Made by a program: the position numbers and the translations under genes. 64,000 nucleotides of DNA. It comes from Escherichia phage BB1. Positions 405 through 36,285 of the stretch are shown here, one piece after another. Location of the stretch: the sequence record NC_106597.1; one strand, written 5' to 3'. The notes under the pieces are model-generated. The model made no database searches and had not been told where the DNA came from. It saw only the letters and a program-made list of their open reading frames with translations. Numbering within the stretch: position 1 is the first letter of the stretch; every line of letters starts with the position of its first letter.

Positions 405-480
405 TGGTACACCCACTAGGACTTGAACCTAGAACCCTCCGCTTAAGAGGCGGTAGCTCTAACCATTGAGCTATGGATGT
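405..480 (-). tRNA. tRNA-Lys (anticodon CUU)
   Basis: Manual cloverleaf in minus sense: acceptor ACATCCA/TGGGTGT, D-stem GCTC/GAGC, anticodon loop CTCTTAA, T-arm CTAGG-TTCAAGT-CCTAG, encoded CCA. Confidence 0.7.
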
Positions 481-556
481 ATTATTATGCTTTGCAGTGC
501 TCTAAATATAGATACTTCCCACGCGGTGGTTATCTATACCAGCGTCCTGCAAAAAT

Positions 557-633
557 TGGCGCGACCGATGGGATTTGAACCCACATTCCCTCCCGTGACA
601 GGGGAGTACCATTACCAAGCCAGCCCCGGTCGC
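557..633 (-). tRNA. tRNA-Asp (anticodon GUC)
   Basis: Manual fold: perfectly complementary acceptor (rc of gcgaccg/cggtcgc), 5-bp anticodon stem with loop rc of gtgacag, T-loop TTCAAAT, encoded CCA. Confidence 0.75.
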
Positions 634-642
634 ATAATTCAT

Positions 643-828
643 TTACTCAGCTTTGAGTTTTTCAATAGCTGCATTAAGTTCTTTAAGAAACTCTTTTCGT
701 ACATTAAGACGGTTGAGACTTACTAGTATATCATGTTTAAGTTCTTCGATGTATTTCTTCTCAACTTCAATATTGTTGAGAGTGCTATCACGATGAACTT
801 CTAGCTGTGCAATTACATTCTTGGACAT
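643..828 (-). CDS. hypothetical small protein (61 aa, coiled-coil-like)
   Basis: ORF with GAGGAAAC RBS-like motif upstream of ATG; no recognisable domain. Confidence 0.4.
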   Translation of the reverse strand: MSKNVIAQLEVHRDSTLNNIEVEKKYIEELKHDILVSLNRLNVRKEFLKELNAAIEKLKAE

Positions 829-855
829 GCTTGTTTCCTCAGTTATTAATGAAAA

Positions 856-927
856 TGGTATCTGTGGCTGAATTCGATGTCAGCAATGATAGCTGGTTGG
901 CTACCGGTTTACTTAACTCTACACAGA
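856..927 (-). tRNA. tRNA-like element (possible degenerate tRNA)
   Basis: TGG (rc CCA) followed by 6-bp complementary termini (tctgtg/cacaga); T-arm-like gctga-attcgatg-tcagc; anticodon arm not canonical. Confidence 0.3.
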
Positions 928-930
928 ATT

Positions 931-1013
931 TGGCGGGCCGTGTAGGATTCGAACCTACGTTGTCTTTCGACATGGATTAACAGTCCACCGCCAAACCGCT
1001 TGGCTAACGACCC
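931..1013 (-). tRNA. tRNA-Asn (anticodon GUU) with unusually long 13-nt variable arm
   Basis: Manual fold: acceptor GGGTCGT/ACGGCCC, D-arm GCCA-AGCGGTT-TGGC, anticodon arm GTGGA-CTGTTAA-TCCAT, variable GTCGAAAGACAAC (GAAA tetraloop hairpin), T-arm GTAGG-TTCGAAT-CCTAC, CCA encoded. Confidence 0.65.
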
Positions 1014-1165
1014 TGAATTTGTATTGCTGACTAGGATTTTCACCTAGACGGAGTTAGCACCGTAGCGTGTAGCGGCATACCTCTCCAAACCGTGCCTCAT
1101 CTTTCAATTACGGAGACAGTGTTCCTACGCGTGCCTGAATTGATTTAACAATTCTTTCAGCAAAT

Positions 1166-1241
1166 TGGACGACCGCATGAGATTTGAACTCACATAAAAA
1201 GGATTTGCAATCCTTCGCCTAAGCCATTCAGCCAACGGTCG
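1166..1241 (-). tRNA. tRNA-Cys (anticodon GCA)
   Basis: Manual fold: anticodon stem aagga/tcctt with loop rc of tttgcaa, T-loop TTCAAAT, acceptor pairs with one G-U, encoded CCA. Confidence 0.75.
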
Positions 1242-1289
1242 ATTTATCTTGTTCTGTCATGTTGCTTCTCCAGTTCAATTTATGTAATT

Positions 1290-1318
1290 ATTATACAGAA
1301 CTTTTGGAAACTAAGCAA
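1290..1318 (-). promoter_or_regulatory. early promoter, sigma70-like (minus sense TTGCTT-17 bp-TATAAT)
   Basis: Plus-strand attata at 1290-1295 and aagcaa at 1313-1318 with 17-bp spacer; member of the repeated promoter family. Confidence 0.6.
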
Positions 1319-1583
1319 CTACATTTTTTAAGAATTTGATGCCTTTCTTTTTCTTCTTATATTTCCACGTTAATGGATTCTGTCGATTATGAACGCTTGA
1401 GATCTTTGTCTCGTCAAAGTTCTTCAATATCATGTAATCACAAGATAATTGTTCTAATGGAATGTGATCACCGTCAAAAGCATATACATAAGGCTGTTGA
1501 CTAGCACGATAATGATAGACTTTGTTAATTCTACGTTTCAGCGACTTATCCGCGCAGTAAATAAAGAAATTTTCAGGATGCAT
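1311..1583 (-). CDS. hypothetical protein (90 aa)
   Basis: ORF with AAAGGAG RBS before ATG. Confidence 0.5.
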   Translation of the reverse strand: MHPENFFIYCADKSLKRRINKVYHYRASQQPYVYAFDGDHIPLEQLSCDYMILKNFDETKISSVHNRQNPLTWKYKKKKKGIKFLKNVVA

Positions 1584-1600
1584 CAGCAGCTCCTTTAAAT

Positions 1601-1675
1601 TGGTGCACCCCGTTGGTAACGATCCAACCTCTCAAGCTCTTCAGGCAAGCGCTAATCCATCTCAGCTAAAGGTGC
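1601..1675 (-). tRNA. tRNA, tentative anticodon GAA (Phe); non-canonical (U-U mismatches in anticodon stem, T-loop ATCGTTA)
   Basis: Manual fold: acceptor GCACCTT/GGGGTGC, T-stem GGTTG/CCAAC, anticodon loop CTGAAGA; anticodon stem has only 3 of 5 pairs. Confidence 0.45.
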
Positions 1676-1681
1676 AAATTT

Positions 1682-1758
1682 TGGCAAACCTACTAGGACT
1701 CGAACCTAGACCGTACGGTTTTGGAGACCGACATGCTGTCCAGTAACACTCTAGGAAT
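1682..1758 (-). tRNA. tRNA-Trp (anticodon CCA), tentative
   Basis: T-arm CTAGG-TTCGAGT-CCTAG, anticodon loop CTCCAAA, encoded CCA; acceptor and D-arm pair poorly. Confidence 0.5.
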
Positions 1759-1766
1759 GCAGAAAT

Positions 1767-1843
1767 TGGCGTCCTGTGCGGGGATCGAACCCACAAATCC
1801 TACCTTGAAAGGGTAGTGACTTTACCAGTTTGTCTAACAGGAC
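1767..1843 (-). tRNA. tRNA-Glu (anticodon UUC)
   Basis: Manual fold: perfect acceptor (gtcctgt/acaggac), anticodon stem ctacc/ggtag with loop rc of ttgaaag, T-loop TTCGATC, encoded CCA. Confidence 0.75.
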
Positions 1844-2325
1844 TTAAATTGCTTATTGGATAGATTGTTAAACTCGGAAAGTATTTCGTTTACACCTCTG
1901 TCTAACACTACCCATTCATTAAGCCGTTCAGGAAAGCTATTATGAAGCATTTTCTCCGCTTCTCTAGCATTAAACCAAAATGACCAATGTATTAACTTAT
2001 AATCACGTAAAGGAGAATAGGTTTGGTAATTTCCTAATCTTGTTTTAGGATCAGAAGACATACCAATTTTTACATAGTTATCCCAAGCTGGGTTAGTTAT
2101 TGCGTAAATAAAACCACAGCTGGATTTTTCTCCAATACTTTTGTTATACTTGATAAAAGATAGTGCAGATAACTTCAAGCTATATCGACGATTACTATCG
2201 CGACCAAAGTTAGCTGTACCGAATGTGAGGCTTTCTAACATTAGATCTTTGTTTATATCAGCTGGTGAACCCAACTGTATAATACCCCTATTTGCAGCTT
2301 CTTGAATTATCCGATCAATATACAT
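1834..2325 (-). CDS. T5orf172-type GIY-YIG-like domain protein (putative homing-type endonuclease)
   Basis: 163 aa; motif CGFIYAITNPAWDNYVKIGMSSDPKTRL resembles the GIY-YIG/T5orf172 core; AAAGGTAAAGG RBS; stop codon overlaps the 5' end of tRNA-Glu. Confidence 0.55.
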   Translation of the reverse strand: MYIDRIIQEAANRGIIQLGSPADINKDLMLESLTFGTANFGRDSNRRYSLKLSALSFIKYNKSIGEKSSCGFIYAITNPAWDNYVKIGMSSDPKTRLGNYQTYSPLRDYKLIHWSFWFNAREAEKMLHNSFPERLNEWVVLDRGVNEILSEFNNLSNKQFKSC

Positions 2326-2342
2326 ATCCTTTACCTTTAATT

Positions 2343-2430
2343 TGGTGGGCGTTAATGGAGTCGAACCACTCGAGTCGCAATGACCAGGGATTTACAATCC
2401 CCTCCGCTACCACTTACGGAATAAACGCCC
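2343..2430 (-). tRNA. tRNA-Tyr (anticodon GUA), long variable arm
   Basis: Manual fold: acceptor GGGCGTT/AACGCCC, anticodon loop TTGTAAA, long variable region, T-arm AGTGG-TTCGACT-CCATT, CCA encoded. Confidence 0.75.
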
Positions 2431-2558
2431 ATATTTAAAAGTATTCAAATACTAGTTTAAACACTTTTAAATATGTTTCCAAATTAGATAACTATTATAC
2501 CAAGTTTTAAGGCACTGAGCAAGTCAAATTTTAAAGAACTTGCTCAGTGCTGTATTAG

Positions 2559-2834
2559 TTAGTCGAACTTAGGAGTGACAGTTAAGGAGAATGGAAGTTC
2601 GAAGACTTCTTCGCCCTCATCACTAACAGTAATTACACGACCTTTAAGTTCAGACATTGAAATATCAATATCAGCTTTTGCATCTGGAGCCATGCCAGCT
2701 TCAACACATTTAGCTTTAATTTCCGGCAGAAGTTCTACATCGTAGAAATAAAGCCATTCAATCTCACCTTCCCAGCCTTCCCAGGATTTACAGATTGCAC
2801 TTTCAATACCAGTTGCTATAACACGATTTTGCAT
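2559..2834 (-). CDS. hypothetical protein (91 aa)
   Basis: ORF with GAAGGAG RBS. Confidence 0.5.
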   Translation of the reverse strand: MQNRVIATGIESAICKSWEGWEGEIEWLYFYDVELLPEIKAKCVEAGMAPDAKADIDISMSELKGRVITVSDEGEEVFELPFSLTVTPKFD

Positions 2835-2924
2835 TCGTTAACTCCTTCATCAATTTATATAACTATTATACCAGAAATTTAAAGCAAAAGGCAAGTACAT
2901 TTTTAAAAATTCTGTTTGGAGGAG

Positions 2925-3131
2925 CTAAACTCCAGATTCTTCAGCTAAGTCTAGGCTAATAAGAGATATAGCCATAATTGCTGCTCCGTGTTCTCTTTCT
3001 CCTGTCTCTTTAGCTAGGGTTATAATATCAAGAAATTGCTTATGAAAGTCTGCAACCTCTTGAGTCATACCTGCCTCAGCAATCATGCCTTTAAGCATGA
3101 AACGTTGTGCGGTAATTTCGGGATTAGCCAT
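2925..3131 (-). CDS. hypothetical protein (68 aa)
   Basis: ORF with GGAG RBS. Confidence 0.45.
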   Translation of the reverse strand: MANPEITAQRFMLKGMIAEAGMTQEVADFHKQFLDIITLAKETGEREHGAAIMAISLISLDLAEESGV

Positions 3132-3291
3132 GTTGTTTCTCCAGTTTCATGTTTAATAGTCTACAAATAAAATCAATGTCTTCATCTGTGCCTAGATCTC
3201 TATCTTCAAGAGTTGCCTTGAAGTTTTTCGTCAATTCCATGAGGATAACTTCTCTAGAACGACGTGTTGGCGGAGGTGGATGTCTATACAT
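3124..3291 (-). CDS. hypothetical small protein (about 55 aa, proline-rich N-terminus), below ORF-track size cutoff
   Basis: Hand-translated MYRHPPPPTRRSREVIL...; AAGGAAATAAG RBS; stop overlaps start of downstream gene. Confidence 0.4.
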   Translation of the reverse strand: MYRHPPPPTRRSREVILMELTKNFKATLEDRDLGTDEDIDFICRLLNMKLEKQHG

Positions 3292-3305
3292 CTTATTTCC
3301 TTAAG

Positions 3306-3382
3306 TTGGTAGGGGTGGTGGGATTCGAACCCACAAAACCTGAATTTTAAGTCCAGTACCTATGCCAATTCGATTACACCCC
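3306..3382 (-). tRNA. tRNA with anticodon UAA (Leu-type) but short class-I variable loop
   Basis: Manual fold: acceptor GGGGGTG/CACCCCT, anticodon arm CTGGA-CTTAAAA-TTCAG, variable GTTTT, T-arm GTGGG-TTCGAAT-CCCAC, A73, CCA encoded; D-arm does not pair canonically. Confidence 0.55.
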
Positions 3383-3484
3383 CATGTAATCAGTTTATTA
3401 GTTGGTACATATTATAGCCTAGTGAAAATCCTACTACTAGTCCCACAAACCAACCAATATAATAATCTTTTAGTTTCACAGGTA

Positions 3485-3670
3485 TTATCCTCGTTCAATA
3501 TCTAGGGAAATACCGCAGTTAGGATTAATACCTGTACCGTTGCAATTTGAACAAATCCAGATATTGCAAAAAGTATCTCCTGCTTCTGCATCAGAACTTT
3601 CACCAATTCCCCTACATTCAGGGCAGGCACATTCTTCTAGCTCTTGCTTGAGTTCTTGAAACTTAGACAT
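3485..3670 (-). CDS. small Cys-rich zinc-ribbon-like protein (61 aa)
   Basis: CxxC...C...CxxC pattern (CACPECRG...CNIWICSNCNG); AAGGAG RBS. Confidence 0.5.
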   Translation of the reverse strand: MSKFQELKQELEECACPECRGIGESSDAEAGDTFCNIWICSNCNGTGINPNCGISLDIERG

Positions 3671-3679
3671 ATAGTCTCC

Positions 3680-3868
3680 TTAGTCAATTACTTTTGAGGC
3701 TTCAAGGGAGTCGATATAGTATACGTTTTCTACCATAATCATATAATCTGCCACTTTATCCATAGCTTGGGCCTCAGAGGTAGCTCTGGCTAACCTATAT
3801 CCTTTTTTATATTCATCCGGGTATTCTCTATCTTGAATAAACACAACATAAACTATGTATAATTCCAC
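3680..3868 (-). CDS. hypothetical small protein; start uncertain (GTG at 3868 or ATG at 3763)
   Basis: Track ORF 3680-4015 overlaps tRNA 3888-3965, so truncated to the first plausible start after the tRNA with a GGGGA RBS. Confidence 0.3.
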   Translation of the reverse strand: MELYIVYVVFIQDREYPDEYKKGYRLARATSEAQAMDKVADYMIMVENVYYIDSLEASKVID

Positions 3869-3887
3869 TTGTAATCCCCTAATTAAG

Positions 3888-3965
3888 TTGGTGGCTCCCC
3901 GAGGATTCGAACCTACGTACCTTCCGGTTATGAGCCGGGTGCTCATACCATATGAGCTTGAGAAC
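3888..3965 (-). tRNA. tRNA-Met or tRNA-Ile (anticodon CAU)
   Basis: Manual fold: acceptor GGTTCTC/GGGAGCC (with G-U), D-arm GCTC/GAGC, anticodon arm CCGG-CTCATAA-CCGG; T-stem only 3 bp; CCA encoded. Confidence 0.55.
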
Positions 3966-3971
3966 CAAAAT

Positions 3972-4065
3972 CTGGAGGAAGATGCCAGACTCGAACTGGC
4001 ACACCATGTTTCCACAGTTACTGGCTGTTTAGCAAACAGCTCCCTTACCTTTAGGGTTAATCTTC
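3972..4065 (-). tRNA. tRNA-Ser (anticodon GCU)
   Basis: Manual fold: perfect acceptor GGAAGAT/ATCTTCC, 3-bp D-stem, anticodon arm GCTGT-TTGCTAA-ACAGC, long variable arm, T-arm GCCAG-TTCGAGT-CTGGC, CCA encoded. Confidence 0.65.
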
Positions 4066-4087
4066 CGAATTTATAAGATATATTATA

Positions 4088-4609
4088 TTAGAAATTTAGC
4101 TTCATAGCAAGAAAATTTTTCAAGTTTTCGGTAGACATCTCATCTACATCTACAGGAGAAACAAAGCCGTTTAATTTTCTAGCAAATTTTTCACCATCGG
4201 GATCATTGTCTCCAACAGCTACCAATTTAAAAGGTAGTAATTTCAGTTGCTTTAATAACGCTTTTCCTGGAGAAGAACCCAACATTGCTAGGGCTGGATA
4301 ACCAGCGTTATGTAACGCAACTGCCTTAAATACAGATTCAGCAATCAATACTACTTTTTCATCTCCATTGAGAGTTTCTAGTCCCCATACACACTGGGTA
4401 GTAGAATAAGTAAAGTATTTAGCTTCAAAGGGGCACTTACCATGACCTTTTGGAGCAGAAGGATTATAAGTTTGATAGCCCCTCAACATCCCAGAGAAGT
4501 CATACAACGGGACTGTTAGCCATCCTTCTGGACTTAACCAGCAATGATATTTATCTGTATCAAATCCCCTAGATAAGAGGTGCTGTGTTAGCTCATCAAC
4601 ATTCATATT
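4088..4609 (-). CDS. Toprim-domain-like protein (about 173 aa)
   Basis: Conserved-looking E (IAESVF) and DxD (VGDNDPDGEKF) resembling the Toprim fold; start moved to MNVDELTQ with GAGAGGAACC RBS downstream of promoter 4637-4665. Confidence 0.45.
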   Translation of the reverse strand, partial: NMNVDELTQHLLSRGFDTDKYHCWLSPEGWLTVPLYDFSGMLRGYQTYNPSAPKGHGKCPFEAKYFTYSTTQCVWGLETLNGDEKVVLIAESVFKAVALHNAGYPALAMLGSSPGKALLKQLKLLPFKLVAVGDNDPDGEKFARKLNGFVSPVDVDEMSTENLKNFLAMKLNF

Positions 4610-4636
4610 TGGTTCCTCTCTCAAATTTATAGATAT

Positions 4637-4665
4637 ATTATACAGAGAATTTAGCATTCAAGCAA
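4637..4665 (-). promoter_or_regulatory. early promoter (minus sense TTGCTT-17-TATAAT)
   Basis: attata 4637-4642, 17-bp spacer, aagcaa 4660-4665. Confidence 0.6.
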
Positions 4666-4781
4666 TCAAATTTTTTAACTTTTTAGAGGAAAATCATAGG
4701 GCACTTAAGGGTAGCAGATAAGTGGTGAGGACCAAAATTTGTGACCCCACTAAAAATCCGGGGGCAATTTTTAAAGACCCC

Positions 4782-4810
4782 TTGACATTTTCGCTGGGGT
4801 AGTGTAAAGT
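4782..4810 (+). promoter_or_regulatory. sigma70-type promoter (TTGACA-17-TAAAGT) sharing the 13-mer TTGACATTTTCGC with the element at 34512
   Basis: Consensus -35 at 4782-4787; 17-bp spacer; -10-like TAAAGT at 4805-4810. Confidence 0.5.
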
Positions 4811-4872
4811 ATATGTTATGGATGAGTGATCAAAGAGACACACATTTTCTATATACTAGGAGGTGTCAAAAA

Positions 4873-5859
4873 ATGACAGAAGAAGTAGCTAAGAGTCCTG
4901 AGACCGTCGCTAGCGTTGCAGCAGAACTGCACCGTCACGAGGAATCAGATAAGAAAAAGTGGGAGAAGGTCAGAGCCTACGAAGAAAAACATCGTGAACA
5001 CGATGATGAAGAAGATGACGATGATGAACATTGTCATAAATATGGAAAACATAAAATGCAAGAACCAGTAAACGTATTCACTAGTGGCTTCCCTGGCCTA
5101 CTGGGTGGTTACCCAGCAAACGCAGGTGCTTTCGGTGGTGAAGGTATGGGACTATTCGGAGCTATCCTAATCGGTGCTCTATTAACAGGCGGATTCGGTG
5201 GTTTCGGTGGATTCGGTGGACGTGGTGTAGTTGGTGAAGGTACCGCAGTTGATGCGGTACTTCAGAACCAAGATACCGCTAGTATTCTAGCAGCTATTAA
5301 CACTACTCGTACAGAAGCTAATCAGGGTACTGGGGCTGTGTTAAGCGCAGTTAACAATGGTTTTAGCCAGACATCCCAAAACCAGAGCCGTGATACTCAG
5401 TCTGTACTAACTACGATTTATGGTACAGGTGCTAATCTGTCTAATCAGATCTGCCAGGAAACTCGCAACGTTATTCAGGGTCAGTTCGATCTTTCTCGCC
5501 AGATTGATCAATCTTTCGCAGCTAACCAGATAGCTCGTGCACAAGATAAATTTGATTCTGCACAGATCGCTTTCCAGCAGACTTTACAAACTAATAACCA
5601 GTTTGCCGCTGTTCAGGCTCAGATGTGTGCTAACCAGAACTCTCTGGAACGTCAGATCGCTGAATGTTGCTGTGAACTTCAGACTGCGATCGCTGGTGTA
5701 ACTACTGCGCGTATCCAGGATGAGTTAGATGCATGTCGCCTACGTGAGGCAATCGCTGCGGGTAATGGTGCTAACGGTCAGGTAATTAATCAAATCGCTG
5801 TAAGTCTTGGTGCAATCACTCAGACTCTGGCTGGTCTGCAGGCTAAACTGCCGGCTTAA
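4873..5859 (+). CDS. low-complexity protein: acidic/His-rich N-terminus, Gly-zipper hydrophobic segment (GGFGGFGGFGG), Q/N/S/T-rich C-terminal region
   Basis: AGGAGGTG RBS 7 nt before ATG at 4873 (track ORF starts earlier at 4813); by eye GC and codon choice look higher than neighbours. Confidence 0.6.
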   Translation: MTEEVAKSPETVASVAAELHRHEESDKKKWEKVRAYEEKHREHDDEEDDDDEHCHKYGKHKMQEPVNVFTSGFPGLLGGYPANAGAFGGEGMGLFGAILIGALLTGGFGGFGGFGGRGVVGEGTAVDAVLQNQDTASILAAINTTRTEANQGTGAVLSAVNNGFSQTSQNQSRDTQSVLTTIYGTGANLSNQICQETRNVIQGQFDLSRQIDQSFAANQIARAQDKFDSAQIAFQQTLQTNNQFAAVQAQMCANQNSLERQIAECCCELQTAIAGVTTARIQDELDACRLREAIAAGNGANGQVINQIAVSLGAITQTLAGLQAKLPA

Positions 5860-5880
5860 TATTAAGGGGAGGAGCCCATT

Positions 5881-6297
5881 ATGAGTAAATATGGTTTTGT
5901 AAATAACGGACTTAATCAAAGTATGGGCTCCCAGCAGCCCATTCCGGGTCTGGATAACCCCTACTTACAACAGTTGCAACAGCGTTTAGCAGAAGCGCAA
6001 CAGATGCAGCAACAACTCCAGCAAAACCCTGGAAGTGTGAGTCCTATGCAAATGATGCAGCAAATGAGCGGGCAGTCGCAAATGCCTCAACAAATGCAGC
6101 AACAGGTGCCTCAGCAGCAAGTTCAGCAACAAACCCAACAACCGCAGGTTTCTGCGGAAGGACAGGCAGTACTAGCCCTTTTCGAAGACTTCGCAAAGAC
6201 AGAGGATGGGAAACAGCTTGTATCACTTATGGGTAAGTTTAATAGCTTCTGCCAAAGCCAAGTTGCAAAAGCTCAAAATGGGGGTAGTAACTCCTAA
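5881..6297 (+). CDS. glutamine-rich low-complexity protein (138 aa)
   Basis: GGGGAGGAG RBS; long poly-Q/QM stretches. Confidence 0.55.
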   Translation: MSKYGFVNNGLNQSMGSQQPIPGLDNPYLQQLQQRLAEAQQMQQQLQQNPGSVSPMQMMQQMSGQSQMPQQMQQQVPQQQVQQQTQQPQVSAEGQAVLALFEDFAKTEDGKQLVSLMGKFNSFCQSQVAKAQNGGSNS

Positions 6298-6306
6298 GGA
6301 GGAAAT

Positions 6307-6501
6307 ATGTGTTGCAGAAAATCTGTTTCGTGCTGCCCAATGCCTGTAGCACGTTGTTGCTCTCCAGCAATGTTTACACAAATACCGGCGTTCAATCCCT
6401 TTGCCTTTAAGCCTACTCTTATCCTGCCCCCTAGAGTAGATTTTCAGTCAAGATTGGCCTCCCGTATGGGTGGTTGCTGTACACCGAGAGTATGGTTCTA
6501 A
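6307..6501 (+). CDS. small Cys-rich protein (64 aa, four CC dipeptides)
   Basis: TAAGGAGG RBS 5 nt upstream of ATG; followed by intrinsic terminator. Confidence 0.45.
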   Translation: MCCRKSVSCCPMPVARCCSPAMFTQIPAFNPFAFKPTLILPPRVDFQSRLASRMGGCCTPRVWF

Positions 6502-6511
6502 ACCAAAAACA

Positions 6512-6548
6512 AAAGCCCCTGCCGAAAGGTAAGGGGCTTTTTCTTTTG
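6512..6548 (+). terminator. rho-independent terminator
   Basis: Hairpin aaagcccct...aaggggcttt followed by T-run. Confidence 0.65.
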
Positions 6549-6556
6549 CCTTAAAT

Positions 6557-6592
6557 ACAGAAAAGCCCGCGCTCTCGTAGGAAACGCGGGCT
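6557..6592 (-). terminator. rho-independent terminator (minus sense), downstream of SPFH gene
   Basis: GC-rich hairpin gcccgcg...cgcgggc with T-run in minus sense. Confidence 0.55.
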
Positions 6593-6616
6593 TGGTTCGA
6601 AGATTACGTGTAACTA

Positions 6617-7564
6617 TTACTTGTTACGCATATCCATGATCATTTGACCATCGTAGCCAGTACCTACCACAGTCTGAGGTACACCACCTTGATACTTCTG
6701 AGCACGGATCATTTCAACTTCCAATTGCTTCCAACGAATCATCTCAGGAGTAATGGTACGTTGCAATGCGGCGTTAGCTTCAGCTTCTTTCTTAGCTGCG
6801 TACAGTTTAGCATCTGCGTCACGTTCATTAGCAATAGCTTGGTTGTTACGAGCTTCACGATCTGCTTCTGCTTGTTTAACTTTTTGCTGTGCTTCCTGTT
6901 CAACGCGAGCAAGTTCAGCTTTCGCAGCATTAACTTGCTCTTCACGAACTTTGGTATTCTGTACCTGTTCCATGATTACTGGCGGCAAAGTAATATCCTG
7001 AAGGAACACCTGCTTAACTGTGTAACCATATGGGCGTGCATACTCTTCAACTTCCTGTTGAATTGCAGTTTGCAATTGAGCCTGAATTTTAGCATCAAAT
7101 AAATCTTGTGCTTTAGGTACAGACTTACCAAACTCACGAATAGTAGACAGTAATTTTTCAGTTACATACTTGTCTAGTGCCTGATCCTGAGTACCTGCGT
7201 TAATACGGTTAATCGGTGCTTTAGAACCATCAAACTGCAACATAACAGTCAGGTCAACAGTGGATTTAAACTTATCCTGGCTAGGAACCTGAAGTTTATC
7301 TAATTTTACAGCAATATCTTTTGTACTAAAAGTATCGAAAGATGCAAACGGGTTTACAAGATGGAAACCCGGCAATACTGGATTAGGGTCTACTTTACCC
7401 AGGAATGTTTGGGTTTTAACCGTACCATCAGAAACAATAGTATATGAATTAAAAGCTAGGATTAAACCTGCTAAACCAACTACAGCACCAATACCCCAAC
7501 GTTTAATAGTACGAATTACTTTCTGCTCAGAAGTCAGTTCTTTCATATTTTTAGTAGCAAACAT
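6617..7564 (-). CDS. SPFH/band-7 (prohibitin/HflK-HflC-like) membrane protein
   Basis: N-terminal TM helix (IGAVVGLAGLILAF), SPFH-like core, C-terminal Ala/Glu-rich coiled coil; AAAGGAAAT RBS. Confidence 0.75.
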   Translation of the reverse strand: MFATKNMKELTSEQKVIRTIKRWGIGAVVGLAGLILAFNSYTIVSDGTVKTQTFLGKVDPNPVLPGFHLVNPFASFDTFSTKDIAVKLDKLQVPSQDKFKSTVDLTVMLQFDGSKAPINRINAGTQDQALDKYVTEKLLSTIREFGKSVPKAQDLFDAKIQAQLQTAIQQEVEEYARPYGYTVKQVFLQDITLPPVIMEQVQNTKVREEQVNAAKAELARVEQEAQQKVKQAEADREARNNQAIANERDADAKLYAAKKEAEANAALQRTITPEMIRWKQLEVEMIRAQKYQGGVPQTVVGTGYDGQMIMDMRNK

Positions 7565-7598
7565 ATATTTCCTTTGTTTTAGTTACAGTTAATAAAAT

Positions 7599-7673
7599 TG
7601 GCCGAGGTGACAGGATTCGAACCTGCATAAAGGAATTTAGAAGACTCCTGCCTCTCCCTTAGACTACACCCCG
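7599..7673 (-). tRNA. tRNA-Arg (anticodon UCU)
   Basis: Manual fold: T-arm GCAGG-TTCGAAT-CCTGT, anticodon stem with loop rc of ttagaag, acceptor pairs with one G-U, CCA encoded. Confidence 0.7.
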
Positions 7674-8172: not shown

Positions 8173-8250
8173 TCTTACCGACCGTAGGATTCGAACCTAC
8201 ATCTTCCACCAGTTACGGCTTGATAATACCAATTATACTAGGACGGCAGT
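8173..8250 (-). tRNA. tRNA-like element (possible pseudo-tRNA)
   Basis: Canonical T-arm GTAGG-TTCGAAT-CCTAC but no CCA, mismatched acceptor and no clean anticodon arm. Confidence 0.3.
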
Positions 8251-9180: not shown

Positions 9181-9648
9181 TTAAGTTTTAGTGACAACAG
9201 GTTTATAAAATGTATGTCCCTTAATCTTAGTTGTTTTCTTAAACTTCTTTGTCCAGTAAGGTTTATCTTTACCGCTATGAAAGTATAACGCTCCATATGT
9301 GGGATCTTGCGGTAAATCAACGTAGTATATCACTCTAGCTAAATTCTTAGCGGTTTGCCAAGCCTCATCAGTTTTATCAACTTTTGGTCTCTTAGATACC
9401 CAAGAGAACTGGTTAGACTGATATACTACTTTACAGTAGGAATCCGGGAATTTACCGGAGTTTACACGGTTTTTAGTAACATGTGCAATCGCCGTCATTC
9501 CCTTTATGCCCTCACCACGACTTTCGAAATAGATATTTTTAGCAATGCAATCTATTTCTTTTGCATCGTGCGATGCCTGACTACTAAAGCTGAAGGTAAG
9601 GGCAGCTACTAAAAGCAAAGCTGCCTTCATTCTTTTTACTCCTGCCAA
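9181..9648 (-). CDS. secreted cell-wall hydrolase, SleB-like
   Basis: N-terminal signal peptide (MKAALLLVAALTFSFSSQA); motif IAKNIYFESRGEG...VYQSNQFSW typical of the SleB/cell-wall hydrolase family. Confidence 0.65.
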   Translation of the reverse strand: MAGVKRMKAALLLVAALTFSFSSQASHDAKEIDCIAKNIYFESRGEGIKGMTAIAHVTKNRVNSGKFPDSYCKVVYQSNQFSWVSKRPKVDKTDEAWQTAKNLARVIYYVDLPQDPTYGALYFHSGKDKPYWTKKFKKTTKIKGHTFYKPVVTKT

Positions 9649-9953
9649 TCATATTCAACACGATTGGGATTTTCTTTATACCCTAAGTCAAGCAAATCAT
9701 TACGCATATTTTGCTTAGCTACTGGGTTCGAGGTTACTAGTACCACTTTCTTTGGTCTCTGCCCAAATTCTAAGAGTAAACGAAGAATTTGATAACCTTC
9801 CATACCATCTACCGCCAAGTCATTATCCATATAAACGAAGTGGCCTGTGGTATCAGTTTTATTCAGAAACTCTACAGCGGCTTCTGGGGTTCGAATGATA
9901 ATGTCCATTCCGTGAAGATTACGCACATCATCAATCAAAATATGAAAAGTCAT
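9636..9953 (-). CDS. stand-alone receiver (REC/CheY-like) domain protein, tentative
   Basis: 105 aa with alternating beta-alpha pattern, acidic pocket (ILIDD...MDNDL) and KKVVLVTS motif; ACGAGG RBS. Confidence 0.4.
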   Translation of the reverse strand: MTFHILIDDVRNLHGMDIIIRTPEAAVEFLNKTDTTGHFVYMDNDLAVDGMEGYQILRLLLEFGQRPKKVVLVTSNPVAKQNMRNDLLDLGYKENPNRVEYDWQE

Positions 9954-30459: not shown

Positions 30460-30964
30460 ACCAATGCCTCCTATGGAATTTATCCTAGAAAAGCTTAGGT
30501 ATGACGAAAGTACTGGGGACTTAATTTGGTTATCTGGCCCAAGGAAGGGAAAGGTAGCGGGCTCCAAAATGAAAACTGGGAGACAGCTAGAGTTTACGAT
30601 AAATGGGGAGCGGACAGCTTACTTAGCCCATAGAATAATCTGGTTTATAAAGACAGGCGAAGATCCTGGAGATAAAACTATCGACCATAAAGACGGTGAT
30701 AGTTTAAACAACTTGTGGGATAATTTACGTAAGGCTACCTATTCCGAAAATGGAAAGAATAAGAAGTGTTCTACTAATTCTACCGGATTCACTGGAGTTG
30801 TAAAACGAGGTAATAGGTATATGGCCTACGCTTACTGCGATGGAAAGCAGCATATTTTTGGTAGACGAGATACCCCGGAAGAAGCCCATCAGCTATACCT
30901 TAGGGGAGTTAAAGAGCTGTTTGGTGAATTTAATCCCTCGGAGAGATATGACAGTGAAGAATAA
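30446..30964 (+). CDS. HNH homing endonuclease (second copy, HNH_3 + AP2-like)
   Basis: AHRIIWFIKTGEDPGDKTIDHKDGDSLNNLWDNLR motif and GFTGV...AY AP2-like region; GGAG RBS; overlaps 3' end of upstream gene. Confidence 0.75.
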   Translation: MKMHKPMPPMEFILEKLRYDESTGDLIWLSGPRKGKVAGSKMKTGRQLEFTINGERTAYLAHRIIWFIKTGEDPGDKTIDHKDGDSLNNLWDNLRKATYSENGKNKKCSTNSTGFTGVVKRGNRYMAYAYCDGKQHIFGRRDTPEEAHQLYLRGVKELFGEFNPSERYDSEE

Positions 30965-31181
30965 AAAATGGGAAACAAGGAAGTTCCCAGTAAAAGAGCG
31001 TAAAGTTCCTGTTTACGACACTTCGGAAAAGCTATGTAGGGTGGTACCACATAGATTAGCTGGCATCCCTAACATATCCGAGTGGTTACTTAAACAACGG
31101 AAAACAAACGTGTCTCTTCGCATCGGCTTTGAATTAGATAAAGTCTATGCTGAACTTGCTTCTTTGCTCAAGGAATCGTAA
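30948..31181 (+). CDS. hypothetical small protein (77 aa)
   Basis: Start set at MTVKNKKW with GGAGAGAT RBS; overlaps HNH 3' end in another frame. Confidence 0.45.
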   Translation: MTVKNKKWETRKFPVKERKVPVYDTSEKLCRVVPHRLAGIPNISEWLLKQRKTNVSLRIGFELDKVYAELASLLKES

Positions 31182-31189
31182 AAATTTAT

Positions 31190-31218
31190 TTGCTTTCAGG
31201 AAAATTTTTCTGTATAAT
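31190..31218 (+). promoter_or_regulatory. early promoter (TTGCTT-17-TATAAT)
   Basis: -35 31190-31195, -10 31213-31218; conserved leader attcataaatttgagagagg. Confidence 0.7.
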
Positions 31219-31249
31219 AGATTCATAAATTTGAGAGAGGAGTTTAAAT

Positions 31250-31951
31250 ATGGCTGGTTCTCGCAGAAAGAAACATATCCATGAAATCCCGGATGAAGTC
31301 TTCAAAAAGGTTATAGAGCATCTAGAGAACGGTGGTACTAAGAAAGCAGCATGTGAAATGCTCGGCGTATCATCCAATCCAACTATGGAAAGGATGATTG
31401 AAGAATGGCAAGACCGCCAGATCCAAGTTGCCGAAATGAAGAAAAAGAAACGTGGCACACTCATTGAAGGCATCGAGTTAGCCAACGTTATTGAACAGTA
31501 TTTATCTGGTGATTCTTTTGAAGAGATTGCCGATCGTAATTATCGCTCTGTAGCAATGGTTAAATCTGTTCTGGAACGCTACGGTGCTCTACTTCGTTTG
31601 AATGATATTGTGGATCCATTGAATCCTCCGATTATTCCTGATGATGCTGTAGCAGAAGAATTTGCAGTTGGTGAGCTTGTTTGGGTTCCTGGATACCAGT
31701 GTATTGGTGAAATCAAAAAAGCAATGGATAACCCTGTTGGTTGTTACCGTGTATGGCTTTTATCAGAAGGCAAACAACAGAACGTTCATTATATGAATTA
31801 CGAGCTGGCTTCTGTTAAACATCTGGAAAAGCTAGGGGTTGATGTAAAATCTCTGGGATACAAGTGGACTCGTGAAGAAGTAATTTCGTTGATTAACGAA
31901 GCTGTTAAGGCTGCCCTGAAACTTGATAAAGAAAAAAGGAAAACGCCGTGA
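31250..31951 (+). CDS. putative DNA-binding protein with N-terminal helix-turn-helix
   Basis: HTH-like segment GGTKKAACEMLGVSSNPTMERMI; no other recognisable domain. Confidence 0.5.
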   Translation: MAGSRRKKHIHEIPDEVFKKVIEHLENGGTKKAACEMLGVSSNPTMERMIEEWQDRQIQVAEMKKKKRGTLIEGIELANVIEQYLSGDSFEEIADRNYRSVAMVKSVLERYGALLRLNDIVDPLNPPIIPDDAVAEEFAVGELVWVPGYQCIGEIKKAMDNPVGCYRVWLLSEGKQQNVHYMNYELASVKHLEKLGVDVKSLGYKWTREEVISLINEAVKAALKLDKEKRKTP

Positions 31952-32193
31952 GTAAACTAACAGATTTACTGAAAGCTGGGGACGTAAAATATCTCCAGCG
32001 AGATTGCTGGAAAAACGATAAAAACTTTATGCTTCTTTTTGAGTTTAATGTTGACAATGATACCATCAAAAGTTTTGCACCATTGCCCACAGGTATTTTT
32101 GAAAATTTTAAACGATCACATAAGCAAGATGTGGAGTTAACTTTAGAAGAAATTCTAGCGGATGATTGGGAGATTGTTGAGCTAGATGTGTAG
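31948..32193 (+). CDS. hypothetical protein (81 aa)
   Basis: ORF overlapping upstream stop (ATGA). Confidence 0.5.
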   Translation: MSKLTDLLKAGDVKYLQRDCWKNDKNFMLLFEFNVDNDTIKSFAPLPTGIFENFKRSHKQDVELTLEEILADDWEIVELDV

Positions 32194-32213
32194 CAATTAC
32201 CGAAAAATTTCAG

Positions 32214-32242
32214 TTGCTTAATCCTATAATTCTTGATATAAT
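32214..32242 (+). promoter_or_regulatory. early promoter (TTGCTT-17-TATAAT)
   Basis: -35 32214-32219, -10 32237-32242. Confidence 0.6.
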
Positions 32243-32299
32243 ATTCTCATAGTTTGAAAGAACTATTCTGTTTAATTCTTAATTAAGGAAATATAAAAT

Positions 32300-32710
32300 A
32301 TGACTACTCCAACTCAGTGGACTGATGAACTGTTCGAAAAAATGTCTTCCGAATACGTTGCTCGTATGGAGCAATTCCCAGAGGATGAACGTCCGGGTGT
32401 TAGCATGGAAATTGTTAGCGAAATTGCTCAGGAAAATGGTGTAACTCCGAACGGTTTTCGTATGAAGTTGACCAAAGCAGGTGTATATATCAAGAAAGCT
32501 GCTGGCTCTGCTTCTAAATCTAGCGCATCTACTGGAGAAAAGGCTTCTGGTGGTTCTCGTACTTCCAAAGCCCAAGCTCATGCCGACCTTCGTTCAGCAT
32601 TCTCTGATGCTGGCTTAGCCCCAGATTTTCTGGATGATGCAATTATCGACAAACTGACCGGTAAAGCGGCTGCTCATCTGGCAGAAGCAATCCGAGCTAT
32701 CACTAAGTAA
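32300..32710 (+). CDS. hypothetical protein (136 aa)
   Basis: ORF with AAGGAAAT RBS. Confidence 0.55.
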   Translation: MTTPTQWTDELFEKMSSEYVARMEQFPEDERPGVSMEIVSEIAQENGVTPNGFRMKLTKAGVYIKKAAGSASKSSASTGEKASGGSRTSKAQAHADLRSAFSDAGLAPDFLDDAIIDKLTGKAAAHLAEAIRAITK

Positions 32711-32746
32711 TTTTAGATAAATCCACCAACAAAAGGAACTACAGTT

Positions 32747-33043
32747 ATGACCAAAGCTGAAATTATCGCACAATGTGAAAAATTTGGTGAGTTTTATCTT
32801 CATTACGAGAAACTTCGTCAGAAAGGAACCACGTACCTTCAGGGTACGATGGAATTTGATCCAGCCCAAGATAAATATCTGGCTGAGCGTATTAAACGTG
32901 AACGTATTCGTAAAGCGAAAGATGATGAGATCCTTGTCTTCTCTCGTACTAATGATAGCTTCCGTTTTATTCCTGTCGAAAAAGTCCGTCGTGTGACTAG
33001 CCTCCAATCAGAGTTAGATCGTGCTTCTCCAGTAGGCCGATAA
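32747..33043 (+). CDS. hypothetical protein (98 aa)
   Basis: ORF with AAAAGGAAC RBS. Confidence 0.5.
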   Translation: MTKAEIIAQCEKFGEFYLHYEKLRQKGTTYLQGTMEFDPAQDKYLAERIKRERIRKAKDDEILVFSRTNDSFRFIPVEKVRRVTSLQSELDRASPVGR

Positions 33044-33053
33044 GAAACCAATT

Positions 33054-33077
33054 AGCCCCTATATGGGGCTTTTTGTG
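33054..33077 (+). terminator. rho-independent terminator
   Basis: agcccct-atat-ggggct hairpin followed by TTTTTGTG. Confidence 0.65.
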
Positions 33078-33093
33078 TATTTGGGATATGTAA

Positions 33094-33402
33094 ATGAGCG
33101 AACAGGTAAATCAAAACTATGAAGGACACGTTGATGACCAGTCCATCATACTTTGGGAGAAGGAGGGAGAACAAGTAAGACTAACAGTATCTGAATTTCG
33201 TGGGAATCTATACATGGGTATTCGTTACTGGCTTCTTGATATTAATGATGAATGGTTTCCAACGAAATCTGGCTTCTCTTTTCCTTACACCCTAGAAACA
33301 ACATCACAGCTTTTCTATGCGTTTACACAGATTCTTAGCGAATCTGAGGTTTTACATGAAGTACAGAAACGAGCTGAAGAACTCAAAGCCAAGAATGCCT
33401 AG
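33094..33402 (+). CDS. PC4-like (transcriptional coactivator p15 fold) ssDNA-binding protein
   Basis: Segment VRLTVSEFRGNLYMGIRYW...FPTKSGFSF matches the PC4/YdbC pattern (...FKGK.LIDIREYW...KGIS). Confidence 0.55.
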   Translation: MSEQVNQNYEGHVDDQSIILWEKEGEQVRLTVSEFRGNLYMGIRYWLLDINDEWFPTKSGFSFPYTLETTSQLFYAFTQILSESEVLHEVQKRAEELKAKNA

Positions 33403-33419
33403 TTCTTGGCTTTTTCTTT
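33388..33419 (+). terminator. rho-independent terminator
   Basis: gccaagaa...ttcttggc hairpin followed by TTTTTCTTT. Confidence 0.65.
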
Positions 33420-33429
33420 ATAAATGTAT

Positions 33430-33458
33430 TTGCTTTCAACTCAGTTTTATTATATAAT
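33430..33458 (+). promoter_or_regulatory. early promoter (TTGCTT-17-TATAAT)
   Basis: -35 33430-33435, -10 33453-33458. Confidence 0.65.
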
Positions 33459-33489
33459 ATTTATATAAATTGATGAGAGATATAAATAA

Positions 33490-34461
33490 ATGACTAATGT
33501 AAAAGACTTTATTAAACGCTGTCAAGAAGCATATTATCAAGGTATGTCTTTAATCTCTGATGAGGAGTATGATTGCCTGGTAAAACGCTTCCCATTAGAA
33601 GAAGAGATCGGACCTAAGGGTGATATTCCACATCTATATCGTATGTATTCTTTACAGAAAGTTTATTATAATCGTGGAGATAAACCCCCATTCAACCCAT
33701 TAGGTCAGGTAGAAACTGATAAGTTAGATGGTTGTGCGATTTCTCTGTTATATATTAATGGAGAATTTGTTCAAGCACTAACTCGTGGCAATGGTATTCT
33801 GGGAAATGATGTCACAAGCAACGTAAGATTGCTGAATATCCCTAAAAAGATTTCCCAAAAAATACCTACTCAAATCACTGGTGAAGTTCTAATTACAAAA
33901 GAAGTAGAAAATAAACGTAACTTTGCCTCTGGTGCTATTAACCTCAAAGATAGCGATGATTTCGTACAGCGTATCGGGGAAGGTGGTTTAATCTTCGTCG
34001 CATATGGCATTCAGTGTTCTGCTGAATCTGTAGGTATTACAGAAGCATATTTAAAAGATATGCTTTGGCTGGAGAATGAGAACTTCTTAACAGTTGTTAA
34101 TGTACGTTCCTTCTTTAAATGGATTCCGACGGACGGTAAAGTTGTTCGTATTAATGACAACAACAAATTCTTCCGTGAAGGCTGGACTAATAAATTCCCT
34201 CGCGGGGCGTTCGCTATTAAAGAGGATGAAGAAGGCGAGATTACAACTCTTACTAAAGTTGAATGGCAGGTAGGGGCTTCTGGTAAAGTAACTCCAGTTG
34301 GTTATTTCGAACCGGTAATTATTGATGATGCTACAATTGTTAAAGCGACTCTTAATAACGTTGATTATATTAACTCTCTCGATCTAGAGATCGGTTGCCA
34401 GATTCGAGTGATTCGTGCTGGTGGTGTAATCCCGTGCATAGTAGAGCGAGTATACGATTAA
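33490..34461 (+). CDS. ligA: NAD-dependent DNA ligase, N-terminal (adenylation/OB) subunit
   Basis: KxDG adenylation motif (ETDKLDGCAISLLY), TRGNGILGNDVT; ends before the zinc-finger/HhH/BRCT part. Confidence 0.8.
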   Translation: MTNVKDFIKRCQEAYYQGMSLISDEEYDCLVKRFPLEEEIGPKGDIPHLYRMYSLQKVYYNRGDKPPFNPLGQVETDKLDGCAISLLYINGEFVQALTRGNGILGNDVTSNVRLLNIPKKISQKIPTQITGEVLITKEVENKRNFASGAINLKDSDDFVQRIGEGGLIFVAYGIQCSAESVGITEAYLKDMLWLENENFLTVVNVRSFFKWIPTDGKVVRINDNNKFFREGWTNKFPRGAFAIKEDEEGEITTLTKVEWQVGASGKVTPVGYFEPVIIDDATIVKATLNNVDYINSLDLEIGCQIRVIRAGGVIPCIVERVYD

Positions 34462-34511
34462 TACATAACCCTTTGCTACCCATCTACCATATCGGAATTA
34501 TAAAGTGGTTA

Positions 34512-34540
34512 TTGACATTTTCGCCGCTTAGGTATATACT
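34512..34540 (+). promoter_or_regulatory. sigma70-type promoter (TTGACA-17-TATACT) within the ligase split
   Basis: -35 34512-34517, -10 34535-34540; shares TTGACATTTTCGC with 4782-4794. Confidence 0.5.
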
Positions 34541-34604
34541 ATTATCATTCAGTTGAGGGATAGAAAGTTATGGCGAGGGTAAGCAAAGTTAGTTAAAATT
34601 GTAG

Positions 34605-34633
34605 TTGCTAAATGCTTAAATACTTGCTATAAT
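34605..34633 (+). promoter_or_regulatory. early promoter (TTGCTA-17-TATAAT) upstream of ligase C-terminal subunit
   Basis: -35 34605-34610, -10 34628-34633. Confidence 0.65.
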
Positions 34634-34660
34634 ATTTATATAAATTGATAAGGAAGAAAT

Positions 34661-36203: not shown

Positions 36204-36220
36204 TCTGGTAAATTAAACCT

Positions 36221-36253
36221 AAGGGGAGGGGGCTATGCTCCTTCCCCTTTTTG
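36221..36253 (+). terminator. rho-independent terminator
   Basis: aaggggaggggg...ccttcccctt hairpin followed by TTTTG; overlaps the first track-ORF start at 36235. Confidence 0.6.
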
Positions 36254-36285
36254 CATTTAGAAGGCACGAAAGCGTGCAAAGGAGA

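Follow-up and report, generated by a model that had tools for sequence, protein, structure and literature searches.

Why should a phage that has a complete DNA primase also carry, among its tRNA genes, a small gene whose product looks like the catalytic part of another? The question is raised by 64,000 nucleotides of DNA from Escherichia phage BB1 (sequence record NC_106597.1), the whole of which is called the window below. The gene in question lies on the minus strand at positions 4088-4606, and encodes a protein of 172 amino acids. An original prediction, made from the letters alone, saw here a stand-alone Toprim protein and proposed, by analogy with RNase M5 and the nuclease modules of the OLD family, that it might be involved in RNA maturation.

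Toprim is only a part of this protein. As modelled, the whole is the complete RNA-polymerase domain of a primase of the DnaG/T7 type, at the minimal size known from T7, and hence more than Toprim alone. What such a domain might do in its present place is a further matter. Here, the motifs and what surrounds them lead us to favor, at somewhat better than an even chance, the view that the protein is an accessory nucleotidyl transferase of the primase type, which would operate independently of a helicase and outside of the replisome.

Fold and motifs of the small protein

The AlphaFold2 model, built from an alignment of 87 sequences, has a pLDDT of 94.3 and a pTM of 0.90. In it, an N-terminal subdomain (residues ~1-85) is packed against a Toprim domain (~85-172), the arrangement that marks the RNA-polymerase domain of primases. 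The Toprim fold that had been predicted is therefore borne out by the model, and also by structural matches found with Foldseek, which include the Toprim domains of primases, RNase M5, and topoisomerases. When the PDB is searched, the top 39 matches are all DnaG catalytic cores, T7 gp4, Twinkle, or T4 gp61. RNase M5 ranks after these 39 primase chains, and its match is limited to the Toprim half, about 87-105 residues. Among the predicted viral structures of BFVD, the neighbors are DnaG-like phage primases.

Profile searches with the sequence also find primases. The match to PHROG 849 (“DNA primase”) has E=1.2e-60; it spans positions 145-337 in a profile of 435, a stretch that corresponds to the central part of longer primases. 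Pfam recognizes Toprim_2 marginally, with 22.8 bits against a cut-off of 22.1 (E=1.2e-4). The sole match in NCBIfam is TIGR00646, the Mycoplasma MG010 “DNA primase-like protein” (E=0.002, residues 23-148), at 17.7 bits against a cut-off of 260.65. The two nuclease analogies of the original prediction find no such footing. Neither an RNase M5 family nor the RNase M5 C-terminal domain is matched in NCBIfam or Pfam, even at E<=10. PADLOC returns no model for OLD, Gabija/GajA, or PARIS/AriB; its sole match is to the DnaG-like Toprim segment of a DRT-associated protein (E=9e-6).

In 264 family members, the invariant or nearly invariant residues are R13, G43, Q45, Y47, K53, K/R63-Y64, E90, F93, D133, D135, G138, D153, and D155/E156. 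The conserved Glu and the DxD motif that had been taken as typical of Toprim are E90 and D133/D135. This conservation, the matches to Toprim_2 and PHROG 849, and the structural matches together place the protein in the Toprim superfamily.

Several of these residues can be matched to named motifs of primases. Motif II would be represented by R13 (4568-4570, minus strand) in HLLSRGF, which resembles YLxxRG of DnaG; Arg stands at this site in 255 of 255 ungapped members, and the equivalence is suggested by the sequence pattern together with a full-length structural alignment. From our reading of the motif, we take R13 to be Arg146 of E. coli DnaG. Motif IV is E90-S-V-F-K94 (4325-4339, minus), whose Glu (codon at 4337-4339) is present in 261 of the 264 members. 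A hidden Markov model (HMM) alignment sets E90 upon the Glu of VVEGYMDVVAL in E. coli DnaG, and upon that of VEGIFDML in the phage’s own primase. Motif V, the Toprim DxD, is D133-N-D135 (4202-4210, minus); it aligns with DGD of E. coli DnaG, and its two Asp residues are found in 249 and 256 members, respectively. Motif VI, D153-V-D155-E156 (4139-4150, minus), is a third acidic cluster that aligns with KDPGD of the phage’s own T5-type primase.

Motif IV holds the one departure from this pattern. In the T5 branch of the family, E[GS]xFK replaces the EGxxD of classical primases, putting Lys94 at the position of the Asp, which more distant members retain. Across the 264 sequences, the site is Lys in 163 and Asp in 78.

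The original prediction had also remarked that no zinc-binding or helicase domain accompanies Toprim, and this holds for the polypeptide in Pfam, in NCBIfam, and in the AlphaFold2 model. Zn_ribbon_DnaG does not match the protein, which begins at motif II and contains only three Cys, none in a CxxC pair. Nor was any helicase-binding or helicase domain found, the chain stopping ~16 residues past motif VI. Thus, the protein has the polymerase domain of a primase of the DnaG or T7 gp4 type, but neither the zinc domain nor the link to a helicase.

Orthologues, a second primase, and the settings of the family

The window is from a T5-like phage (Tequintavirus). Many T5-like genomes from Escherichia and Salmonella phages are 96-98% identical to it over positions 3000-6500 and run collinear with its first 25 kb. 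The small protein is the orthologue of the product of phage T5 gene T5.076 (NC_005859 37279-37797; YP_006904.1), with 96.5% identity and the same 172 amino acids; the two show no material difference. The T5 gene is annotated “DNA primase; matches the Toprim sub-domain,” and occupies the same place, with promoter P15a on one side and P15b on the other, and with tRNA-Ser3 and tRNA-Ile2 following; one tRNA lies upstream of it and at least 22 lie downstream. Within the Demerecviridae, the orthologue group comprises 207 records at 95% identity or more, 55 of these at 99% or more, and the neighbors of the gene are conserved in vB_EcoS_MM-1 and T5. The gene is, of course, already catalogued and not new; a search of the literature found no paper on the function of T5.076.

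The phage has a complete primase elsewhere. This protein, of 296 amino acids, is encoded on the plus strand at 37755-38645 and has a CHC2 zinc ribbon, DNAG_N, and Toprim, with the motifs EGIFD, DND, and KDPGD. The start of its gene overlaps the stop of a gene for a DnaB-like helicase (36235-37758), from which the small gene is ~32 kb away. The two primase-like proteins of the phage resemble each other marginally (23% over 132 amino acids, E=0.1). A separate primase beside the family copy is also found in Kagunavirus phages and in a metagenomic locus, L100.

Two mutants of T5 do without the small gene. The viable deletion mutant T5 st0 lacks T5.076; its record marks the recombination site, and tblastn of the corresponding region returns nothing. 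The gene also falls inside the deletion of T5Mos, which spans 30661-38625; T5Mos grows normally on cells that lack PARIS (PMC11464382). Because a complete primase lies beside the helicase and T5.076 is deleted in these two viable mutants, T5.076 is not the replicative primase, and is dispensable.

The family extends well beyond T5. Its size was gauged by a word-index search and by an HMM search that was exhaustive: 1773 cluster representatives reach E<=1e-3, and 422 reach 1e-10. Almost all are stand-alone proteins of 165-190 amino acids; hundreds of clusters hold this uniform length at 35-50% identity. Genomic contexts were surveyed at 80 IMG/VR loci, which form about 25 lineages when grouped at 70% identity, in several GenBank phages, and on several metagenomic contigs. 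The pattern used to scan IMG/VR demanded FK, and therefore selected the Lys subtype.

One recurrent setting is that of tRNA genes. In the window, the small gene is, as had been predicted, embedded in a tRNA cluster. Its stop codon is 21 nt from a tRNA-Ser(GCU) called by ARAGORN (3973-4066, minus); further tRNAs follow downstream, and a tRNA-Arg lies upstream, all on the same strand. Of the IMG/VR loci, 14 contain tRNAs, and in all 14 the gene shares its strand with every tRNA and lies within the array or at its head; a few tRNAs precede it, 13-22 follow, and the gaps are 12-350 nt in most. Providencia phage PR1 has the T5-like layout of the gene and its tRNAs.

CCA-adding enzymes form a second association. 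In Shewanella phage 1/40, the family gene overlaps the stop of a gene for a CCA-adding enzyme, and NAD-salvage genes come next. Fusions to CCA-adding enzymes occur in both orders, one in P0170 and the other in P0265 and P0253, where the junction is present on two contigs. At L100 (6608-8194, minus), a protein of 528 amino acids fuses a primase core of the Asp subtype to a GNAT of the Mom family; its gene is convergent with a gene for a CCA-adding enzyme, 24 nt away, and the separate primase of this locus is of the canonical DnaG type. Mom modifies DNA using Gly-tRNA (PMC13219725). The product of the Mom family is a hypermodified DNA adenine.

Genes for RNA repair and for NAD metabolism are also found nearby. 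The homologue in Erwinia phage Special G adjoins RtcB. NAMPT lies within 10 kb at 20 of the 80 loci, and within 1.3 kb at eight. NMNAT-Nudix, Pth/PTH2, ArfA, and an Acb2/Tad1-like gene are near homologues as well, and other fusions join the core to Arr-type ADP-ribosyltransferase, GNAT, NMNAT-like, and HAD phosphatase domains. Sequence searches of the PDB with the fused HAD, Arr-like, and other N-terminal domains were uninformative, and the literature search found no paper that links Toprim, NAMPT, and tRNA. Neither cRec, YqeY, nor the equivalents of T5.077 and T5.078 were found near homologues at other loci, where they were sought as partners that travel with the gene.

Other relatives live among genes of DNA metabolism. 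In Kagunavirus, the gene is translationally coupled after a SNF2 helicase, in a module with PolA, and no tRNA is present at these loci; the SNF2 helicase shows no homology to D10 of T5. In environmental phages of ~60-105 kb, it follows genes for an ATP-dependent ligase, a metallophosphoesterase (Metallophos), and DUF7831, a synteny that is limited to two related groups of these phages and is not found in T5. DUF7831 itself, a protein of about 127-130 amino acids with FVFGDNL...GIGTGMAK, is encoded one to three genes upstream of the homologue, at L092 (7433-7816), L097 (6167-6559), and 11 more loci. In rare cases, the core is fused to ParB_N or to a DUF3268 zinc finger.

In jumbo phages of the Erwinia type, the homologue is placed among genes for a flap endonuclease, a Dam methylase, and a dCMP deaminase, with a small CxxC..CxxC open reading frame just downstream. 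Homologues from the jumbo phages of Erwinia, Klebsiella, and Serratia share 42-52% identity with the window protein and have the same E[GS]xFK motif. They consistently consist of two open reading frames, split between the Glu and the DxD motifs by a gap of 37-110 nt, with both halves conserved. Such are gp48 and gp49 of Erwinia phage Special G (L004, 4902-5511), L007 (4995-5505), and L064-L087. These could be functional split enzymes, products of recoding, or a shared pseudogene. DnaG-like primases with a stand-alone zinc ribbon have been described in group 2 jumbo phages (Iyer et al., 2021, PMC7824862), a group to which these Erwinia phages may belong.

What the protein might do

We infer catalysis and substrate from the fold, the conservation of the motifs, the loss of domains, the dispensability, and the genomic associations. 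The protein would be made early, from a gene that heads the tRNA operon and has a T5-type promoter of its own. Single-stranded nucleic acid and nucleoside triphosphates would bind in the cleft between the N-terminal subdomain, with R13, K53, and K/R63-Y64, and the Toprim center. There, the acidic residues E90, D133, D135, D153, and D155/E156 would hold the catalytic metal ions, and ribonucleotides would be joined, either to make a short oligoribonucleotide or to extend a 3'-OH. As the protein has no zinc ribbon and no docking site for a helicase, and as a complete primase lies beside the replicative helicase, it would work outside of the replisome, in an accessory and dispensable role.

If this is a primase-type enzyme, two kinds of substrate share the probability about equally. 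Roughly half goes to priming on single-stranded DNA, which would be helicase-independent and would have relaxed specificity or receive a zinc ribbon in trans. The other half goes to RNA 3' ends, where the protein would belong to a toolkit for tRNA maintenance as a partner of CCA-adding enzymes. The specific proposal that a primase core was recruited from DNA replication to tRNA maintenance, acting there on tRNA 3' ends, is put forward tentatively, as somewhat unlikely. Here, damaged acceptor ends would be refilled or extended by templated addition of ribonucleotides, or trimmed, upstream of the CCA-adding enzyme. Further out, the protein might make short NAD-initiated RNAs for the linked or fused ADP-ribosyltransferase and the NAD-salvage genes.

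Several facts weigh against a primase-type transferase. In the T5 branch, Lys takes the place of the second acid of motif IV (Asp269 in E. coli DnaG), and this could change or abolish the binding of metal. Active plasmid and P4 primases have EGYATA at motif IV and also lack that Asp. In established work on T7, a primase domain deprived of its zinc ribbon is unable to make primers directed by a template. A zinc-ribbon neighbor occurs in Erwinia jumbo phages, in L096, and in a few others, but is not consistent: three of 48 adjacent small open reading frames qualify, against 21 of 756 in the background, which is not significant (p=0.17). Nothing like the zinc ribbon at the N-terminus of the T5-type primase was found among the open reading frames of the window or of the surveyed loci. 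The genomic contexts diverge between DNA modules and genes for tRNA, CCA, and NAD functions, and common neighbors (Band 7, a cell-wall hydrolase) mean that the lineages are not fully independent. Fusions to CCA-adding enzymes are rare, and the CCA part of P0265 has its closest homologues in genes that stand alone, within T4-like structural modules. Last, the literature search found no biochemical data for any family member.

What else might the protein be? Closest to the original prediction is a Toprim ribonuclease, which would trim or resolve co-transcribed polycistronic tRNA precursors, or remove damaged or added 3' nucleotides before the CCA-adding enzyme rebuilds the end. There is precedent in PARIS, whose Toprim nuclease AriB cleaves tRNA (PMC11464382, PMC12409363). 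The same-strand place inside tRNA operons suits such an enzyme, as do the adjacency and fusion to CCA-adding enzymes and the adjacency to RtcB, and Lys in place of the motif IV Asp sets the center apart from classical primases. The basic motifs of the N-terminal subdomain (R13, K53, K/R63-Y64) are, however, conserved like the acidic residues, and known Toprim nucleases have no such subdomain; nor does any RNase M5 or OLD-type model match. All ten tRNAs that ARAGORN calls in the window (405-7673, minus) encode CCA, which weakens the need for RNase Z-like 3' processing, and each has an A/U-rich trailer of the type that host enzymes process. Further, the Kagunavirus members are at loci without tRNA. 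We consider a ribonuclease unlikely. For the RNA-maturation role as originally proposed, the support is circumstantial, coming from the position within tRNA operons in many phages and the adjacency or fusion to CCA-adding enzymes, while the primase motifs point to polymerization rather than cleavage.

A role in counter-defense without any polymerization appears quite improbable. The cleft would bind or hydrolyze an immune signal derived from a nucleotide or from NAD; or else some host system that detects or employs Toprim or primase-like proteins would be inhibited, or decoyed, by this one. Laboratory hosts do not require the gene for phage growth, and it sits in accessory early regions with phage tRNAs, NAMPT, NMNAT-Nudix, Acb2/Tad1-like genes, ArfA, Pth/PTH2, and, 5 kb off, cRec; fusions to Arr-type ADP-ribosyltransferase, GNAT, and NMNAT-like domains are of a piece with this. 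Co-location in an accessory island is, of course, weak evidence, and near-invariance of all of the catalytic motifs of primases favors primase-like chemistry over mere binding. No likeness to known anti-defense families was found, the DnaG-like segment of the DRT-associated protein being the sole PADLOC match. Decay would account for a protein that is shorter than canonical primases and dispensable, and for the homologue split in two in jumbo phages; it would then be the functionless remnant of a primase paralogue that lost its zinc finger. This is very hard to credit given the uniform length across hundreds of clusters, the invariant catalytic residues, the strong promoter and Shine-Dalgarno sequence that the gene has of its own, and conservation at 95-100% in more than 200 T5-like genomes. 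Finally, the label “DNA primase” in RefSeq, Pharokka, and PHROG would make the protein the replicative lagging-strand primase. This has next to no chance: the complete zinc-ribbon primase stands beside the DnaB-like helicase, the small protein has no domain for zinc or helicase binding, and the viable deletions T5 st0 and T5Mos refute the idea for T5.

The primase-type reading matters in more than one way. T5-like phages are model systems and candidates for therapy, and their tRNA region defeats tRNA-cleaving immunity such as PARIS and retrons. Should the protein be a spare DNA primase only, its annotation would improve to “zinc-finger-less primase catalytic core, accessory,” the present label being one that misleads calls of replication modules. 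Should it act on tRNA ends, it would represent a new class of RNA-repair enzyme, a replication enzyme redeployed to protect translation. Its role in tRNA maintenance would then make it an undescribed class of phage enzyme for tRNA repair or counter-defense. The picture at the level of the family was not found described in the literature: a stand-alone E[GS]xFK core with neither zinc finger nor helicase, encoded by a second primase-like gene that is placed repeatedly at the heads of tRNA operons and beside CCA-adding enzymes.

The surrounding locus, and known systems for comparison

The gene reported at 4088-4609 is real, an open reading frame on the minus strand; the end at 4609 is one codon too long. 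The coding sequence is 4088-4606, with 172 codons plus a stop and its ATG at 4606-4604. Read mechanically, the open reading frame is longer (4088-4657, minus). The start at 4657 was dropped in favor of 4606 because the ATG at 4657 falls in the spacer of a T5-type early promoter, a Shine-Dalgarno sequence precedes 4606, and orthologues have 172 amino acids. The Shine-Dalgarno sequence is GAGAGGAA (4613-4620, minus), 6 nt ahead of the ATG.

The promoter, TTGCTT-17-TATAAT (4637-4665, minus), was read from the sequence and drives the gene; it corresponds to P15a of T5, which the T5 annotation puts directly upstream of T5.076. A simple scan overlooked it, the -35 hexamer matching TTGACA at three of six positions. 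A second T5-type early promoter, TTGCTA-17-TATAAT (4082-4110, minus), overlaps the stop codon and the codons just before it, and drives the tRNAs that follow; it was found by a promoter scan (10/12 matches) and in the T5 annotation, where it corresponds to P15b. The two promoters share an extended near-identity, TTGCTWGAAKGCTAAATT...TATAATATATCTWTAAATT, that reaches well past the -35 and -10 hexamers. This shared extended sequence is a signature of T5 early promoters, which a plain sigma-70 scan half misses.

A tRNA at 3892-3966 (minus), next after tRNA-Ser(GCU) and in the position of T5 tRNA-Ile2/Met CAU, was missed by ARAGORN and rests on the Rfam tRNA model and the T5 annotation. It is one of three minus-strand tRNAs that the Rfam model adds to those reported by ARAGORN, the others being at 1604-1675 and 8176-8247. 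The 3' flanks of the ten ARAGORN tRNAs carry a similar A/T-rich tetramer (AATT, ATTT, AAAT, ACTT, or GATT), which may be a common processing signal.

Some neighbors deserve mention. Between tRNA-Glu and tRNA-Tyr, at 1834-2325 (minus), lies a gene for a 163-amino acid protein with a T5orf172/MUG113 domain; it probably entered the tRNA array as a mobile insertion, since vB_EcoS_MM-1 has no annotated coding sequence at the same place. About 420 nt downstream of the small gene, in the same operon, 3485-3670 (minus) encodes a protein of 61 amino acids with two DnaJ-type CxxCxGxG zinc-finger repeats. Its relatives are labeled “antitermination Q-like,” and it is missing from T5 proper, which has the HNH gene hegA instead. 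A similar zinc-finger protein of 62-65 amino acids accompanies a homologue of 288 amino acids in phage-plasmid-like contigs of ~108 kb from Acinetobacter (L019-L021), where it lies 2.4-3.1 kb upstream of the homologue.

The divergent neighbors, equivalents of T5.077 and T5.078, encode a Gly/Gln-rich protein of 329 amino acids (4870-5859, plus) and a Gln-rich, low-complexity protein of 138 amino acids (5881-6297, plus), neither of which has a match in Pfam. The equivalent of T5.084 (9636-9953, minus), ~5 kb from the small gene, encodes a protein of 105 amino acids that Pfam assigns to cREC_REC, the “cyclic-phosphate processing receiver domain” (E=3.8e-15). The cRec domain has been tied to NAD-centered systems and to the healing of 2',3'-cyclic RNA ends beside RNA ligases (Iyer et al., 2021, PMC7824862).

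How, then, does the protein compare with systems already known? Among Toprim nucleases, RNase M5, an enzyme of 5S rRNA maturation, is also small and stand-alone, with the Glu and DxD of Toprim. In RNase M5, however, Toprim is N-terminal and is followed by an RNA-binding domain, whereas Toprim in the window protein is C-terminal and follows the N-terminal subdomain of a primase. OLD, GajA, and AriB combine an OLD-type Toprim with an ABC-type ATPase domain or partner; the window protein has no ATPase domain, and its gene has no adjacent ATPase gene.

Among primases, the RNA-polymerase domain is shared with DnaG, T7 gp4, and T4 gp61. T5.076 differs from these in having no CHC2 zinc ribbon, no helicase-binding domain, and no fused helicase, in lying away from the gene for the replicative helicase, in having Lys for the second acid of motif IV, and in being dispensable. 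MG010 of Mycoplasma is also a short DnaG-like paralogue, but a cellular one, and T5.076 is not, by score, a member of TIGR00646.

T7 makes a 56-kDa form of gp4, a natural short form without the zinc-binding domain, alongside the full-length primase. Like T5.076, this is a zinc-ribbon-less primase core that exists beside a complete one; unlike T5.076, it is a product of the same gene, is fused to the helicase, and works in the replisome, where T5.076 is a separate and distant paralogue with no link to a helicase. The DnaG-like Toprim primase of jumbo phages is encoded by two open reading frames among genes of DNA metabolism, whereas the gene in the window is a single open reading frame within a tRNA operon and has no obligatory zinc-ribbon neighbor. 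Judged by analogy, the nearest functional counterparts of the protein are the short gp4 of T7, without its zinc ribbon, and the jumbo-phage primases that are split in two.

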